64,000 nucleotides of DNA from the sequence record PX880102.1; one strand, written 5' to 3'. Both the position numbers and the translations under genes were made by a program. The notes beneath the pieces are model-generated. The model was not told where the DNA came from. It worked only from the letters and a program-made list of their open reading frames with translations, and ran no database searches. Positions 1,790 through 62,251 of the stretch are shown piece after piece (positions within the stretch are counted from its first letter, which is position 1; each line of letters opens with the position of its first letter). This DNA is from a phage.

Positions 1790-2076
1790 TAGAACCTCAT
1801 CTGAAAACCATGTGATTTAACATTACCACCATTAATATCAGAACTATTAATTTCACGTGCAATTGAGGGATCAATGTCAATTTCGCCATTAAGTTTAATG
1901 ATAGACAAAGTATCACGCCCATTTACTGTGCGGAACTCTAAAGGACAAACCACATCAACGTAGTTTTTAATCGATTCACTGGTAGGCTGCAAATGAGCAG
2001 GAAGGTCTTTAGGTGCCTTTGAGAAAACCACTTCACAGAAATTTTTACGAGTATCAAAATAAGTAGTCATAAACAT
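1789..2076 (-). CDS. hypothetical protein (about 95 aa; start taken at the internal ATG after GAGGAAA)
   Basis: ORF track 1789..2127; longer start would read through an intergenic hairpin. Confidence 0.5.
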   Translation of the reverse strand: MFMTTYFDTRKNFCEVVFSKAPKDLPAHLQPTSESIKNYVDVVCPLEFRTVNGRDTLSIIKLNGEIDIDPSIAREINSSDINGGNVKSHGFQMRF

Positions 2077-2093
2077 AATATTTTCCTCAGTAA

Positions 2094-2107
2094 GGGGCCG
2101 AAGCCCC
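2094..2107 (-). other. intergenic GC hairpin immediately 5' of an RBS
   Basis: GGGGCTTCGGCCCC; no U-run on the minus strand. Confidence 0.4.
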
Positions 2108-2116
2108 TGTTTTATT

Positions 2117-2482
2117 TTAAATATCAAATTCGTTAAGAACTACATCAAAGATTGCTTCAAGATGCTCAGGTTTAGCTTTGTTAATCAGAATATGACGAAT
2201 CCAAGTTTTAACCAGAAGCTTGCGATTAGCACCATTCCAGCAAGGATGAGTCCCTAAATCGCGTCGACGGAAATCATCATCTAGAGCGACTTTAAAGTTG
2301 GAACCTTCCATCGTGATTGAAACCGTGATACCGTTTTCAAATCGCATATAAACGTAGTTAGGAGTCATATACTGTTCAATTTCGCATACTGATCCATTTT
2401 GATGTTTCCAAAGGCAAATAGTATCAATAGAACCTGCAATACCGTTAGAAACATATTTACGTTCAAAGTTGATGTAGTTCAT
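2117..2482 (-). CDS. hypothetical protein (121 aa)
   Basis: ORF track 2117..2548 trimmed; the first 22 codons are the early promoter/leader; GGAGAATAAAATG RBS. Confidence 0.55.
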   Translation of the reverse strand: MNYINFERKYVSNGIAGSIDTICLWKHQNGSVCEIEQYMTPNYVYMRFENGITVSITMEGSNFKVALDDDFRRRDLGTHPCWNGANRKLLVKTWIRHILINKAKPEHLEAIFDVVLNEFDI

Positions 2483-2514
2483 TTTATTCTCCAGATGTTT
2501 AATTGCGGTACAGG

Positions 2515-3852: not shown

Positions 3853-4188
3853 TCACTTATAAAGACACGGAATAGCTTTATAGTGACAAGTGACGAATTT
3901 TTGTTTAATTTCTTTTGGCTGCTTAAGACCCAGAGCTACAAAAGGATGCGGAACGTTTCGAATTTGACCAACTGGAAGAGAAGTCAAATCACCAACTTCG
4001 CAGAAACCTTCAGGAACATCAGGACCAACAGAGTGAACTACACACAGTTCAGGAACTTCACCTTGAACACGTTTACCGATAATAAGTCCTGATTCTGTAA
4101 CTTCTTCATCACCGGCTTGTGCAGGTTCAGAAACTAAAATAACATATTCACCGACAGCACGAATTGGTAGCTGTTGTACTTCAGACAT
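3853..4188 (-). CDS. 31: gp31 capsid-folding co-chaperonin (GroES analogue), 111 aa
   Basis: 111 aa, [21 protein letters not shown]... matches T4 gp31; position between rIII and cd. Confidence 0.85.
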
Positions 4189-4212
4189 CGTTTTTCCTTT
4201 TTGTTAACAGAT

Positions 4213-4245
4213 GAATTAATAATAACAAATAATTCTTAAAGCATT
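4213..4245 (-). promoter_or_regulatory. candidate MotA-dependent middle promoter for gene 31
   Basis: AATGCTTTA MotA-box-like element about 11 nt upstream of an AT-rich -10. Confidence 0.35.
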
Positions 4246-4553
4246 TATTTACCAATAAATTGGAGCAAATGCTCAACTTTCATACCATTAACGGAAATCA
4301 ATTTGTCAATAGAAAAACCTCGCCATGCACCAAGCTCAACATCAAATACTGGAATCATGTCAGTAGATTCTTTCCGAGTAGATTCAGTCAATTTACCAGT
4401 TTGCATGGTTGGCATAAAGTCCGCATCACGAGTGCCTTTCATAGTACGAATAGTACCATCAGACTTTTCAAAAACTACGTTTGAAACCCCCATGGACAAT
4501 TTAGTTTTCAAAATTTCACGAATTGCTACTTTTTGTTCAGTCGTCAGTTTCAT
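4245..4553 (-). CDS. hypothetical protein (102 aa)
   Basis: ORF track; synteny with T4 31.x. Confidence 0.55.
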   Translation of the reverse strand: MKLTTEQKVAIREILKTKLSMGVSNVVFEKSDGTIRTMKGTRDADFMPTMQTGKLTESTRKESTDMIPVFDVELGAWRGFSIDKLISVNGMKVEHLLQFIGK

Positions 4554-4790
4554 TTATTTACCTATTACAGTTTTAATATGAGTTGTTCCACGTTCTTTAA
4601 GAGTGGAAAGCAATTTTTGGCATTTTTCTAAATCAGATTTCCAACTATACGGCCTATCAATACTAGTCCAATCAGTTTTATAATACTGTTTCCATTTAGA
4701 GAAAAAATATTTCTTATACTCTACAGCAAATGAGATGTTCTCGTTGGAATAAGAACTAATTGCTGTGAGCTGTACCAAACGAAATTTCAT
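4554..4790 (-). CDS. hypothetical protein (78 aa)
   Basis: ORF track; abuts cd. Confidence 0.5.
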   Translation of the reverse strand: MKFRLVQLTAISSYSNENISFAVEYKKYFFSKWKQYYKTDWTSIDRPYSWKSDLEKCQKLLSTLKERGTTHIKTVIGK

Positions 4791-57583: not shown

Positions 57584-57784
57584 ATGGTACAAAAATTAAT
57601 GGCACTTGTTAATGCCATCAAAGGTAATAAGAAACGTATAGCTTTTACTATTTCTGCTATGGTAGGAATTTTACTCTGGAACTTTATTTTATCACCAATT
57701 GCAATTGCGCATGGTGTTAATATTCCAGTAGTTACTCTTGATACATTCGTAGATCTAGCATTTGCTTTAGTTGGGTTGATTTAA
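57584..57784 (+). CDS. possible small membrane protein (66 aa), only plus-strand ORF in this minus block
   Basis: AAGGAGGA 4-5 nt before ATG; two hydrophobic segments; lies in the 56-61 intergenic space; could be chance. Confidence 0.35.
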   Translation: MVQKLMALVNAIKGNKKRIAFTISAMVGILLWNFILSPIAIAHGVNIPVVTLDTFVDLAFALVGLI

Positions 57785-58809
57785 ATCTTAGCATATTTAG
57801 ATAGCCGCATTTTAGCCATCAACCCCTGGGCAATATTATTTTTCATATATTCCATAATTTGTTCAGGGGTTGCACCTTCCTTTCTAATCATATCATTAAC
57901 ATCTTTAGATTTCCAGGGAGATTTATCCCAAAACATAACCCTTTCTCCTGCATCAACTAATTTAGTCATTCGTTTGATAGTGTCAGGGTGACGAGGTTCA
58001 TTATCTAAAACCCACACTCGTCTATCTTTAAATGGAACAATTTCTAGGTCTAATTGACCACCCGTAATAGCTATACCATTTTCAATAAAAAGTGAATCTA
58101 TAGGTCCTTCTAGAACATATACATCGCCATCTTTAACTCGTTCGACTCCATAGATTTTTGTTGCCTCAGGATAAGCTTTAATGGTGATATATTTTTGAGG
58201 AGCATTTTTCTTTAATGCACGCCCTTGAAACGACTCGGCTTTTCCGTTAGCATTATAAATTGGAATAACAAGACGAGGCTCAGGTATTTCCTTTTTATAT
58301 GTTCCCGGTGCTATGCTATTAACCAATTTAGGCCATTCGGTTGTAAACCAAAGATATTTCCATTTATCCTTTGGAATACAACGAGCTTTTACGTATTTTA
58401 TAATTGGATGGTCTTCCGCCAGTTTATCTAATCTAACACATGACGGAAGAGATTTAATTATTTTCTTCTCAGGTTGTTTAGGAAGTTCTTTAGGTTTTTC
58501 TACTGGACGACTTTTACCTTTTTCTTTTCTTATTTCAAAGATATACTCACGATATAAATCAGGTTCAAACTCCTTTAAATATATTCCGATTGGTGCGTGA
58601 TAGTTACAGTTATAACAATGAATATTTCCTTCATTATTATCACCATAATACCATCCACGAGCTTTATTCTGGTCGGTTTTTGAATCTCCACAAACGGGGC
58701 ATCTAAACCGCAATTTAAAAGTTGAACTATTATTTACTTGTGTGAATTTAGGTAAATGAGCCAATGCACGATACGCAAACTCATTATCAATCCAAGGTAT
58801 TGATGACAT
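57781..58809 (-). CDS. 61: gp61 DNA primase (342 aa)
   Basis: N-terminal zinc ribbon CPVCGDSK...CYNC; TOPRIM; 342 aa. Confidence 0.9.
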   Translation of the reverse strand: MSSIPWIDNEFAYRALAHLPKFTQVNNSSTFKLRFRCPVCGDSKTDQNKARGWYYGDNNEGNIHCYNCNYHAPIGIYLKEFEPDLYREYIFEIRKEKGKSRPVEKPKELPKQPEKKIIKSLPSCVRLDKLAEDHPIIKYVKARCIPKDKWKYLWFTTEWPKLVNSIAPGTYKKEIPEPRLVIPIYNANGKAESFQGRALKKNAPQKYITIKAYPEATKIYGVERVKDGDVYVLEGPIDSLFIENGIAITGGQLDLEIVPFKDRRVWVLDNEPRHPDTIKRMTKLVDAGERVMFWDKSPWKSKDVNDMIRKEGATPEQIMEYMKNNIAQGLMAKMRLSKYAKI

Positions 58810-58811
58810 TT

Positions 58812-58976
58812 TTACTCTTCTTTTTCTTTAGATTCCTCTTTTTTCTTTTTAGGAATCTGTTCAGGACCTTTATTTACTACAGCACCTGATGTTGTTCCAG
58901 TAGAGATATTTTCAGGATTACCACCTGAATCTCCAGCAACCATATCTTCTTTAATAAATTCTTTATATGTTTTCAT
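58812..58976 (-). CDS. small Lys/Glu-rich protein (54 aa)
   Basis: manual translation; TAATATG coupling. Confidence 0.35.
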   Translation of the reverse strand: MKTYKEFIKEDMVAGDSGGNPENISTGTTSGAVVNKGPEQIPKKKKEESKEKEE

Positions 58977-59020
58977 ATTAACCTCTATTCATAAAAGCAT
59001 TAAAAATTTGGTCATCAATC
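58974..59020 (-). repeat. direct repeat copy A (about 47 bp, roughly 92 percent identical to copy B)
   Basis: catattaacctctattcataaaagcattaaaaatttggtcatcaatcga. Confidence 0.7.
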
Positions 59021-59334
59021 GATGGAATAGCAACTTTTTCTGCATCATTTAGCAAATCATTAATTTCATCAGATAGCATAACACATGTACCTTTATTTCC
59101 TGTAATTGTTACTGCACAATTACGAACGTTTTCTTTATTAAATTTTAGGTTAATATTTTCGTAATGAAAATCCTTTAATGCTGAATATATTTTTAAAATA
59201 AAATTGTCTTTTACTACAATAAACCCAACCTCACTATTAAAACGTGGTTCATGGAAACTGTAATAAACCTTTTCATCTATAAAATCGTATGAAATTTTTT
59301 CCATTTTTAAATATGAAAATTCAGAACTATACAT
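58978..59334 (-). CDS. hypothetical protein, single-domain paralog of the adjacent 213 aa gene (118 aa)
   Basis: shares the VKDN core and an identical C-terminal IDDQIFNAFMN(R/K)G tail with 59336..59977. Confidence 0.55.
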   Translation of the reverse strand: MYSSEFSYLKMEKISYDFIDEKVYYSFHEPRFNSEVGFIVVKDNFILKIYSALKDFHYENINLKFNKENVRNCAVTITGNKGTCVMLSDEINDLLNDAEKVAIPSIDDQIFNAFMNRG

Positions 59335-59378
59335 ATTAACCTTTATTCATAAAAGCATTAAAAATTTGATCGTCAATA
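59332..59378 (-). repeat. direct repeat copy B
   Basis: catattaacctttattcataaaagcattaaaaatttgatcgtcaataga. Confidence 0.7.
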
Positions 59379-59977
59379 GAAACTTTTACTTTAGGATGTT
59401 CTTCAAACGGTAATTCATATCCACATATTACAATTTTGTGATCGATACCAAAATACACAGAAGCAATATGATTAATATTATTTTCAGTGAAATCTAAATC
59501 AACATCAATATCTTTTTGACTAACGCTCAAAGGATAATTAATACGAATAATTCGATTATCTTTAACAAAGATTCCACCGACATACTCTGTGTTGCGTTTA
59601 AAGTTTACACGTTTCCTAAATGAAAAATATTCAGGTTCTTTATGAGCCCGACTCATAGGACACAATGAGTAGCTAGAATAAGAGATGTCAAATCCTACAC
59701 CTTCAATATGAGCCAACGTGTCATGATTAAACCAATTATAATCATATGCCAAATCCATTATATTGTAATATGTGAAAGGCACCGGATTAACATCATATAT
59801 TGTACCTTTAAAATCTGCCCAGGCAACGATTTCATTATCTTTAACAATTACAAAAATTGTGCCAATAAGATATCCACGGTTATTTTCATCAGGCGTTATA
59901 TTATAACATTGCGCATCAGGAAATTTACCGTATTTAAACGGTGGATTTTTGTGCATATAATAAATCATATTATTCAC
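59336..59977 (-). CDS. hypothetical two-repeat protein (213 aa) at the T4 61.2 position
   Basis: two internal VKDN-core repeats; tail shared with 58978..59334. Confidence 0.55.
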   Translation of the reverse strand: MNNMIYYMHKNPPFKYGKFPDAQCYNITPDENNRGYLIGTIFVIVKDNEIVAWADFKGTIYDVNPVPFTYYNIMDLAYDYNWFNHDTLAHIEGVGFDISYSSYSLCPMSRAHKEPEYFSFRKRVNFKRNTEYVGGIFVKDNRIIRINYPLSVSQKDIDVDLDFTENNINHIASVYFGIDHKIVICGYELPFEEHPKVKVSIDDQIFNAFMNKG

Positions 59978-60263
59978 CTGTGATTTCGGTTACGATATCT
60001 TTGTTATCAAAATTAGGGTCACAATACAAAACATAGTTATACTGCATCACACCACCTGATTTAAGCTGTTTTTGTACTTCAACTTTCATATTGGGACGAT
60101 CACGCTCAACGATATTCATAATATCCGCTTCAATTTGAGTTTCAACTTCAGTCTGATCTGCAGTCATAGACCATTCACACAAATCTTTATCATAACCTGC
60201 CATAGCAGGCTGAGCAGCACAAGAAGCTAAAGCAAAAATTGCAGCAAAGATAAATTTTTTCAT
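59970..60263 (-). CDS. sp: probable Spackle periplasmic superinfection-exclusion protein (97 aa)
   Basis: 97 aa; cleavable signal peptide ...AQPAMA|G; position between 61 and 41. Confidence 0.6.
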   Translation of the reverse strand: MKKFIFAAIFALASCAAQPAMAGYDKDLCEWSMTADQTEVETQIEADIMNIVERDRPNMKVEVQKQLKSGGVMQYNYVLYCDPNFDNKDIVTEITGE

Positions 60264-60323
60264 GATAATCTCCTCAGTAGTTTATGTTTATATAGTATCT
60301 CAATTTCCAACAAAAGTAAACAG

Positions 60324-60635
60324 CTATTTTAAAACTTCTGCATAATCACATGTTACAAACTGTTTCTCTAACTTGACGATTTTACGAAAATACCTTTTAC
60401 ACTGACGAATCTGTCGCTTCGTAGGACGTACAGCAAACTTAATAAATTCCACTCGACCAAATGGAGGACTTTCTTCTGCTGGAATATCTAGCACCAATTC
60501 CCACGTATCTGCAATAAGTGCTTTGAATTGCGTATTTTTCCTGACGTTATACGGAGTAGGTTTAAATAAAACAATATGCATATTATCCTCGGCAATCCAC
60601 TTCGCACACTTTCTTGTCATCAATGAAAGCTTCAA
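60324..60635 (-). CDS. hypothetical basic protein (103 aa)
   Basis: ORF track. Confidence 0.5.
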   Translation of the reverse strand: MKLSLMTRKCAKWIAEDNMHIVLFKPTPYNVRKNTQFKALIADTWELVLDIPAEESPPFGRVEFIKFAVRPTKRQIRQCKRYFRKIVKLEKQFVTCDYAEVLK

Positions 60636-60765
60636 CTAATGCTTTATTAACTTCAGCATATTGAGTAGTAGCCCATTGAACGTCATCTTTCATCATTGTG
60701 GTTTCTTTAGTAAACATGCTTTCATTCTTAAACCACCCCATAAAAACTACCTTTACCAATTCCAT
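60583..60765 (-). CDS. dmd: probable Dmd antitoxin (60 aa)
   Basis: 60 aa; immediately downstream of gene 41 with own early promoter, as in T4. Confidence 0.65.
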   Translation of the reverse strand: MELVKVVFMGWFKNESMFTKETTMMKDDVQWATTQYAEVNKALVEAFIDDKKVCEVDCRG

Positions 60766-60791
60766 AACAATCTCCTCATTTAACCAACAAG

Positions 60792-60826
60792 ACTACTATA
60801 CCATAGTCTTGTCAGCTTGTAAACTA
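60792..60826 (-). promoter_or_regulatory. T4-type early promoter upstream of dmd
   Basis: GTTTAC (60819-60824 rc) overlapping gene 41 stop, 18 nt, TATAGT. Confidence 0.5.
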
Positions 60827-62251
60827 AAATTTTAATTCATTTGCCAAAGCATCTAACTGAGCTCGAGCTGATTCGTTTCTTTGATAGCGATTCTGTTCAG
60901 CCTGAATCTGCTGTGAACCTGCTACTTCACTCACTTCGGTTGGAGTAGAATCTTGTTCAATTTCTACCCATTTTTGATTTCCTTTTTGAACACCCATCAA
61001 AAACTTATTCCACTTATTCTTATCACCATATCGTGATTTGATTTGCTTAATGAGTTGTTGTTCAGCAGCTGCTAGCTCCTCGGTTTCAATGACCGCAAGC
61101 ATAAAATCAGCTGTTGCTGGAAGACCAGCAGATTCTGCAATATCGCTCATGTTAACATCGGAAGAGTCCCAAGCTTGTTTACCGACCTGTGCTGCAGTCC
61201 AAAGAACAGTTTCTGTTTCAACAGCCAGAGCACGTAATTCCTCTGCAATAGCTTTAACAGTTGTGTAACTATTTTCTGAATAAACTCTAATGCGGCAAGA
61301 TTTACAAATACCTAGATAGTCGACAATAATGATTGTTGGAACAAAATTCTTTTTGAGCTTCAATTCATTCAAGAGAGACCTGAATGTGTTAGCGTCTGCT
61401 CCACCAGTAGGATATTGCTTAACGATTAAACGACCGAGAGTAGATTTCTCACGCCATTTTTCCATTTTTCCTTTATACTCGGCATAAGAAATATGTCCAT
61501 CATCAATATCGTCAAGAGAAACATCGAGCATGTTAGCATCAATACGTTTAGCACAGACTTCTTCTGCCATTTCCATGGAGATATAAAGAACGTTATGACC
61601 AAGCTGCAAATAATCTGCTGCTAATGAACAAAGTCCTAATGATTTACCAACGTTAACGCCAGCCATTAAAACGTTCAGTGTTCCAGTCTCAGCTCCGCCT
61701 TTAGTAATTTTGTTTAGAATTCTGAGTTTAAATGGAACCTTACGAGCTTTATTCATATAAGATAGCCAACGCGCTTCATAGTCATCCATCCAATCATGAC
61801 CAACGTAGCTATCAAATGAAATTGATAATGCTTGGCGCATGATGTCAGGAATAGCACCTACATCTGGCATTTTCTTATTTCGTTTTTCCGGAGGAAGCTC
61901 AGCATTAGTTTGAATTTCGATTATTTTAGACGTAGCATTAAACATCGCCCTTTGCTGAACATATTTTTCTGTTTCTTTTACTAACCAGCTGTGGTCTTCT
62001 GGAGAATCAGTCAGTTTTGAAATAAGTGTTTTTACACCAGAATATTCTGTTTCAGTAAATGAACTATTTTCTAATGCAACATTTAACGCATTAATAGATG
62101 GAACGCTATGATACTCGTTGACATGAGATTTAATTAATTTGAATGTATTTTTAGCTGGACCACTTTCAAAATATTCTGAATCCATATATGGCCAAACTTT
62201 TGAAAAATAAGCTTGATCAAATATAAGATGAGAAAGAATAATTTCTACCAC
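60824..62251 (-). CDS. 41: gp41 replicative DNA helicase, DnaB-like (475 aa), GTG start
   Basis: MVEIILSHLIFDQ N-terminus; Walker A GVNVGKS; AAGGAG RBS 5 nt before GTG. Confidence 0.95.
   Translation of the reverse strand: MVEIILSHLIFDQAYFSKVWPYMDSEYFESGPAKNTFKLIKSHVNEYHSVPSINALNVALENSSFTETEYSGVKTLISKLTDSPEDHSWLVKETEKYVQQRAMFNATSKIIEIQTNAELPPEKRNKKMPDVGAIPDIMRQALSISFDSYVGHDWMDDYEARWLSYMNKARKVPFKLRILNKITKGGAETGTLNVLMAGVNVGKSLGLCSLAADYLQLGHNVLYISMEMAEEVCAKRIDANMLDVSLDDIDDGHISYAEYKGKMEKWREKSTLGRLIVKQYPTGGADANTFRSLLNELKLKKNFVPTIIIVDYLGICKSCRIRVYSENSYTTVKAIAEELRALAVETETVLWTAAQVGKQAWDSSDVNMSDIAESAGLPATADFMLAVIETEELAAAEQQLIKQIKSRYGDKNKWNKFLMGVQKGNQKWVEIEQDSTPTEVSEVAGSQQIQAEQNRYQRNESARAQLDALANELKF

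Follow-up and report, generated by a model that had tools for sequence, protein, structure and literature searches.

The interval 59970..60765 of phage sequence record PX880102.1, analysed here within a single window of 64,000 nucleotides (nt), is very probably the T4-type ‘anti-toxin-antitoxin island’ of a Tequatrovirus, with near-identical dmd, tifA and sp genes. The middle open reading frame (ORF), for which a preliminary description of this DNA had no assignment, is tifA (gene 61.4), whose product is a characterised inhibitor of the toxin ToxN in T4; the same activity is predicted for the window protein from its 99% identity. Gene identities and boundaries, operon layout, promoter sequence and the conservation of all published functional residues were computed for the window itself; the biochemical activities are those described in the literature for T4 proteins that are 89-99% identical to the window's. 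The features of the island are given below, with strand, length in amino acids (aa) and, in brackets, the evidence used.

60795..60823, minus strand: predicted early (sigma-70 type) promoter of the dmd-tifA operon (promoter scan, conservation in T4)
60583..60765, minus strand: dmd (61.5), predicted 60 aa antitoxin (Pfam, PHROG, T4 identity, PDB match)
60582..60635, minus strand: 18-codon ‘extension’ of a 103 aa ORF, not part of the gene (3' end of dmd in another frame)
60324..60581, minus strand: tifA (61.4), 85 aa basic protein with ATG start (T4 identity, Pfam, PHROG, Shine-Dalgarno sequence, annotation)
60292..60321, minus strand: putative promoter-like site ahead of sp (four-phage alignment)
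60198..60263, minus strand: predicted Sp signal peptide, residues 1-22 (T4 identity, alignment to 7cn6)
59970..60263, minus strand: sp (61.3), 97 aa Spackle precursor (Pfam, T4 identity, PDB matches)

The naming of the middle gene is carried by direct comparison with T4. Its product matches T4 gp61.4 at 84 of 85 residues (E=4e-64), I83V being the sole residue difference, and belongs to Pfam DUF7279 (E=2.3e-20; 72.7 bits against a cut-off of 24.5) and to PHROG 2375 (E=3.7e-37). It is basic, as the preliminary description had it, with an isoelectric point of 9.8. The two genes differ at 14 nucleotides: 12 of the differences are synonymous codon changes, one turns the TAA stop of T4 into TAG in the window, and one produces the conservative I83V. 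That 14 nucleotide differences yield but one conservative residue change indicates strong purifying selection on the 85 aa frame; no functional difference from the T4 gene is expected.

What the T4 gene does has been worked out in two studies. Gene 61.4 was given the new name tifA, for ToxN inhibitory factor A, in 2022, in a study in which five replicate T4 populations came to beat toxIN through amplification of the dmd-tifA locus (Srikant et al. 2022, PMC9391042). The ToxN endoribonuclease is neutralised by the protein product of tifA, not by its RNA, and likewise by the T2, T6 and RB69 homologues; dmd and tifA are co-operonic, and the region was termed an anti-toxin-antitoxin (anti-TA) island (PMC9391042). 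TifA binds both RNA and ToxN, in a ribonucleoprotein of high molecular weight in which 16S rRNA is enriched (Guegler et al. 2023, PMC10853763). Within TifA, P53-T54 caps a C-terminal basic helix carrying K55, R56 and R59; the substitutions P53A/T54A and K55A/R56A/R59A each abolish function, and position 41 sets potency, F being weak and S or H stronger (PMC10853763). All of these residues (F41, P53, T54, K55, R56 and R59) are present in the window TifA, and the segment VRPTKRQIRQ (residues 51-60) is invariant among the window, T4, RB69, JS98 and NC-G. The T4 gene likewise encodes 85 aa, starts one base past the dmd stop and lies behind the same early promoter, and its product has the same F41, P53-T54 and K55/R56/R59. 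A counter-defence role had been proposed for this ORF from the letters of the sequence; the proposal is supported by its 99% identity to a protein shown to inhibit ToxN (PMC9391042, PMC10853763).

The gene upstream, dmd, lies exactly where the preliminary description had placed it, with the 60 aa it had given. Its product matches Pfam PF17587 Dmd over the full length (1-60 of 60, E=1.1e-44), falls in PHROG 2102, is identical to T4 Dmd at 58 of 60 residues (the differences are I22T and K45E) and matches PDB 5hy3_B, ‘Antitoxin Dmd’ (E=3.7e-36). A GAGGAG Shine-Dalgarno sequence stands at 60777..60772. T4 Dmd (gp61.5, PDB 5HY3) is encoded at the same place behind the same promoter; it inhibits the HEPN RNases RnlA and LsoA directly, bound beside the active site (PMC8266594). 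The early promoter claimed for dmd is sound as a sequence feature: TTTACA, a 17-nt spacer and TATAGT, with a TG-extended -10 element, run from 60823 to 60795, begin directly past the stop codon of gene 41 and took the top score of the promoter scan (10 of 12). The intergenic region between 41 and dmd is identical to T4 at 78 of 79 positions, and in T4 an early promoter upstream of dmd drives dmd and 61.4 jointly (PMC9391042).

The third gene, sp, also has precisely the coordinates first proposed for it. The protein matches Pfam PF25676 T4_Spackle (E=2.1e-45, over 1-96 of 96), T4 Sp (86 of 97 residues identical) and PDB 6x6o, ‘Protein spackle’ (E=3.4e-56). Its N-terminus, MKKFIFAAIFALASCAAQPAMA followed by G, differs from that of T4 only by T8A; cleavage ahead of the G is predicted, and the mature chain of 7cn6 aligns from Sp residue 23. 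In T4, mature Spackle of 75 aa binds the gp5 tail lysozyme at a basic patch that surrounds its substrate cleft, inhibits the enzyme allosterically and excludes superinfecting phage; the C29-C81 disulfide and the gp5-lysozyme contact residues have been named (PMC7677548). C29, C81 and the contacts S32, M33, T34, A35, Q37 and N76 are all identical to T4 in the window protein, which thus shares the mature start G23, the C29-C81 pair and the contact residues with T4 Spackle (gp61.3; PDB 6X6O, 6XC0, 7CN6). Eleven substitutions separate the two proteins, seven of them in residues 83-95, where the DNA of the window is RB69-like and not T4-like. A promoter-like site ahead of sp reads GTTTAC(T), 17 nt, TACTAT, one nt different from T4; in an alignment of the window, T4, RB69 and JS98 the GTTTAC is invariant and the -10 region partly conserved.

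Profile searches, suggested at the outset for each ORF, thus matched the Spackle, DUF7279 (TifA) and Dmd families. A scan of six small proteins of the locus against NCBIfam gave no family, in a collection where TifA, Dmd, Spackle and AdfA are all without a model. A PDB sequence search with TifA, at E up to 1, found no solved relative.

The surroundings agree with the assignment. Over 58700..60900 a megablast search matched 665 phage records; vB_EcoM-UFV09 and its siblings are closest, 99.9% identical, and AR1, wV7, RB51 and RB68 are 97-98% identical to the window. This near-identity to vB_EcoM-UFV09, RB51 and AR1, together with the common gene order, places the window in Tequatrovirus, in the RB51/AR1/wV7 group. 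The RB51 annotation lists, in order, 41, dmd, 61.4, sp, 61.2, RB32ORF033c (‘similar to gp61.2’), 61.1 and 61. The T4 order, 41-dmd-tifA-sp-adfA-61.1-61, is also that of the window, except that T4 does not have the extra 118 aa gene. Between 57.8 and 62.3 kilobases of the window every real gene is on the minus strand; the plus-strand ORFs of 31-52 aa inside the interval run antisense to strongly conserved genes. The neighbouring genes are as follows.

60824..62251, minus strand: gene 41, helicase (ORF list)
59336..59968, minus strand: adfA (61.2), anti-DarT factor A family, 210 aa (Pfam, T4 and RB69 identity)
58978..59334, minus strand: 118 aa paralogue of the C-terminal half of AdfA, RB32ORF033c in RB51 (partial Pfam AdfA match, PHROG 4122)
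58812..58976, minus strand: 61.1, 54 aa (PHROG 1823, E=7e-34; RB51 and T4 annotation)
57781..58809, minus strand: gene 61, primase (ORF list)

A scan of 58700..60900 on both strands against Rfam, at E up to 1, gave no match; no known RNA element is therefore hidden in the interval. A terminator scan found no intrinsic terminators between the genes.

This arrangement suggests how the island would work. The minus strand would carry two early transcription units. In the first, the early promoter past gene 41 would drive the two-gene operon dmd-tifA. Dmd would bind the groove next to the active site of RnlA or LsoA and so protect phage mRNA from degradation. The basic segment of TifA (K55, R56, R59), capped by Pro53-Thr54, would bind RNA and then, with that RNA, ToxN; the toxin would thereby be trapped on RNA that is abundant, 16S rRNA for example, and the transcripts of the phage would be spared after the post-infection decay of toxI. 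The second unit would begin with sp and continue through adfA (anti-DarT), the short adfA paralogue, 61.1 and the primase gene 61. Sp would be exported by means of its 22-residue signal peptide, and the remaining 75 aa, a disulfide-bonded helical bundle, would inhibit the gp5 tail lysozyme of superinfecting T-even phage.

By analogy, the alleles of the window would behave like those of T4. With F41 the window carries the weak form of TifA, so the phage should overcome toxIN at chromosomal level and be restricted by plasmid-borne toxIN.

Several points weigh against carrying the T4 activities over so directly. The alleles of this phage are known here as sequences. Dmd has I22T and K45E, and Sp its eleven substitutions, mostly in the RB69-like C-terminal patch; these could bear on target range. 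TifA homologues are specific, and several inhibit no ToxN tested, although those are distant and not 99% identical (PMC10853763). The same paper leaves open how ToxN is inactivated inside the TifA-RNA complex (PMC10853763). A single-sequence AlphaFold2 model of the window TifA is of low confidence (mean predicted local distance difference test, pLDDT, 44); its most confident part is a helix at 55-72, in weak agreement with the helix described after P53-T54. Finally, the promoter-like site ahead of sp scores 8 of 12, below the threshold of the scan, and its function is putative.

The most substantial alternative accepts the names of the genes and doubts their targets. It supposes that TifA, with its weak F41, and the variant Dmd and Sp are adapted to different toxins of the ToxN or RnlA kind, or to the lysozymes of other phages, met in the natural hosts of this phage, and that the textbook activities are secondary. 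Some observations lean this way. T4 TifA rescues ToxN toxicity only partly, and plasmid-borne toxIN restricts T4; the specificity of TifA homologues led the authors to suggest that each is tuned to its cognate ToxN; T4 AdfA shows no phenotype against the DarTG1 tested, and its authors think that some other DarT homologue is likely neutralised (PMC11257639); and the 3' end of sp with the 5' end of adfA forms an RB69-like mosaic patch. Other observations speak against it. Native T4 tifA is reported to be sufficient against chromosomally expressed toxIN (PMC9391042), and the T2, T4 and T6 TifA proteins neutralise four ToxN proteins from different enterobacteria (PMC10853763). The window TifA differs from that of T4 by I83V alone, a residue that lies neither in the interface loop nor in the basic helix, and every named contact residue of Sp is conserved. 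A shift of the alleles to other targets is considered unlikely, and the T4-type activities remain the preferred account.

A narrower doubt concerns Sp, which might act chiefly on the envelope of the infected cell itself and on lysis timing, with superinfection exclusion not its main role. The classical rIV or ‘spackle’ phenotype, rapid lysis together with rescue of lysozyme mutants, is of this kind, and the T4 and RB51 annotations repeat it (‘mutants give rapid lysis and allow survival of lysozyme mutants’, ‘rIV’). However, Spackle binds the gp5 tail lysozyme stoichiometrically and inhibits it potently, and does not so inhibit the T4 endolysin (PMC7677548); moreover, action on the own cell is compatible with exclusion, as both phenotypes probably follow from a block of gp5 lysozyme in the periplasm. 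That the own-cell effect is the chief one seems improbable, and exclusion of superinfecting phage is kept as the role proposed for Sp.

The extent of tifA differs from that first given. The preliminary description had reported a 103 aa ORF at 60324..60635; a minus-strand ORF of those limits does exist, but its start was wrongly placed. It is a mechanical stop-to-stop frame, and the real gene occupies 60324..60581 and encodes 85 aa. The ATG at 60581 stands one base past the dmd stop, with a GAGGA Shine-Dalgarno sequence at 60590..60586, 4 nt ahead of it. The annotations of T4 and RB51 both give gene 61.4 as 85 aa, and the T4 gene works when its 85 codons are recoded and expressed by themselves, while loss of its ATG abolishes function (PMC9391042). 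A TTG-initiated TifA of 103 aa, its N-terminal 18 codons overlapping the end of dmd, deserves next to no credence and was rejected. In its favour, the window, T4 and RB69 all keep an open frame over the 18 codons that precede the ATG, and the window offers the TTG at 60635 as well as an ATG in frame at 60620. Against it, both T4 and RB69 have TTA in place of the TTG, in JS98 the codon immediately before the conserved Met is a stop, all five homologues compared start in the alignment at the Met of the 60581 ATG, no Shine-Dalgarno sequence was found before the TTG or before the ATG at 60620, and the open frame is probably maintained by the conserved dmd coding sequence that overlies it.

Downstream of sp, the duplicated genes noticed earlier at 58812..59977 are real: they are adfA (210 aa) and a 118 aa paralogue of its C-terminal part, accompanied by 61.1. 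AdfA matches Pfam PF23813 AdfA throughout (1-211 of 211, E=1.4e-136) and is 73% identical to T4 (BLASTP) and 84% to RB69 (alignment). His at AdfA position 164 marks the allele that binds and neutralises DarT1 (PMC11257639); in the alignment H167 of the window stands with R164 of RB69 and H165 of T4. As a check on whether AdfA might be an internal duplication of two halves, residues 1-105 were compared with 106-210 (BLASTP); this gives E=0.089, the motif IG.IFV.KDN.I being the sole shared part. As TifA is a ToxN inhibitor and the downstream genes belong to the AdfA family (PMC11257639), ToxIN and DarTG, two of the four defence systems whose hosts the preliminary description had suggested for plaque assays, are published targets of these families.

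The 118 aa ORF matches the Pfam AdfA profile at positions 113-211 of 211 only (E=1.8e-8; 34.4 bits against a cut-off of 27), belongs to a PHROG of its own (4122) and has Asn in the His164 column. By this partial match it is a half-size AdfA paralogue and not an AdfA orthologue, as it does not have the full-length architecture. The gene is carried by 334 phage records. A direct repeat of 49 nt (58974..59022 and 59332..59380; 92% identical, spacing 358), made of the 3' ends of adfA and of the 118 aa gene, bounds it on both sides. T4 has the long adfA only, T2 the short gene only, and the window, RB51, AR1 and RB32 have both; this distribution suggests that the genes have been gained and lost through recombination at the 49-nt repeat.

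A search with 61.1 matched no Pfam family. Residues 8-53 of gp61.1 match positions 109-154 of the 156 in phrog_2086 (E=2.6e-16), and the partial match to a longer family raises the prospect that some phages carry a three-fold longer version. Other genes of the region have already been flagged as anti-toxin candidates (PMC9391042). It is a tentative idea, somewhat doubtful on present evidence, that the 118 aa paralogue may be an independent toxin inhibitor of another specificity, for example for another DarT variant, that the long and short forms might swap or stack at the repeat, and that 61.1 could be a further anti-toxin factor.

The island appears to be a mosaic and varies in content in other genera. 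A patch at about 59750..60065 (minus strand), covering sp at its 3' end and adfA over its 5' third, is 56-81% identical to T4 and 84-99% identical to RB69 (Mosigvirus). Unlike this patch, dmd and tifA, together with sp in its 5' part, are T4-like at 96-99%. An RB69-like patch beside T4-like flanks points to recombination breakpoints inside sp and adfA. In RB69 (4012..4690 of the stretch compared), tifA and sp are separated by imm and imm.1, and two further ORFs stand between 41 and dmd. In JS98 and NC-G (1838..2499 of the stretches compared) one additional ORF precedes dmd, and dmd and tifA have a 141-nt spacer or an ORF between them. JS98 and IME08 each have two places matched by TifA in tblastn.

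Nothing within 59970..60765 is new: all three genes belong to characterised families, and the anti-TA island at this locus is already published. The pieces without characterisation, the short AdfA paralogue and 61.1, lie outside the interval. The locus, the functions of the three genes and the concept of the anti-TA island were published between 2012 and 2023, so the finding adds little to them. A reading from the letters of the DNA did nonetheless recover a real counter-defence island and the right target systems. The outcome may also be of use for annotation and for phage therapy. A TifA homologue was found in 676 phage records (tblastn), and the name could be propagated to several hundred records. 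For host range in phage therapy, TifA F41 (weak) and AdfA His164 (active) can be read from sequence, and they predict sensitivity to strongly expressed toxIN.

Two minor observations concern annotation. Among the matches listed, the tifA orthologue is nearly always called ‘hypothetical protein’ (e.g. OR125554.1, ON528744.1); phage BW-1 has it as ‘DNA polymerase’, and in Shigella phage ESh34 it is left unannotated. On the far side of the primase gene, a hydrophobic ORF of 66 aa at 57584..57784 (plus strand) converges on gene 61, with an overlap of 4 nt at the 3' end of that gene. This ORF does not figure in the T4 annotation of the region; it is the positional counterpart of RB32ORF030w in RB51 (‘similar to RB69ORF029w’).

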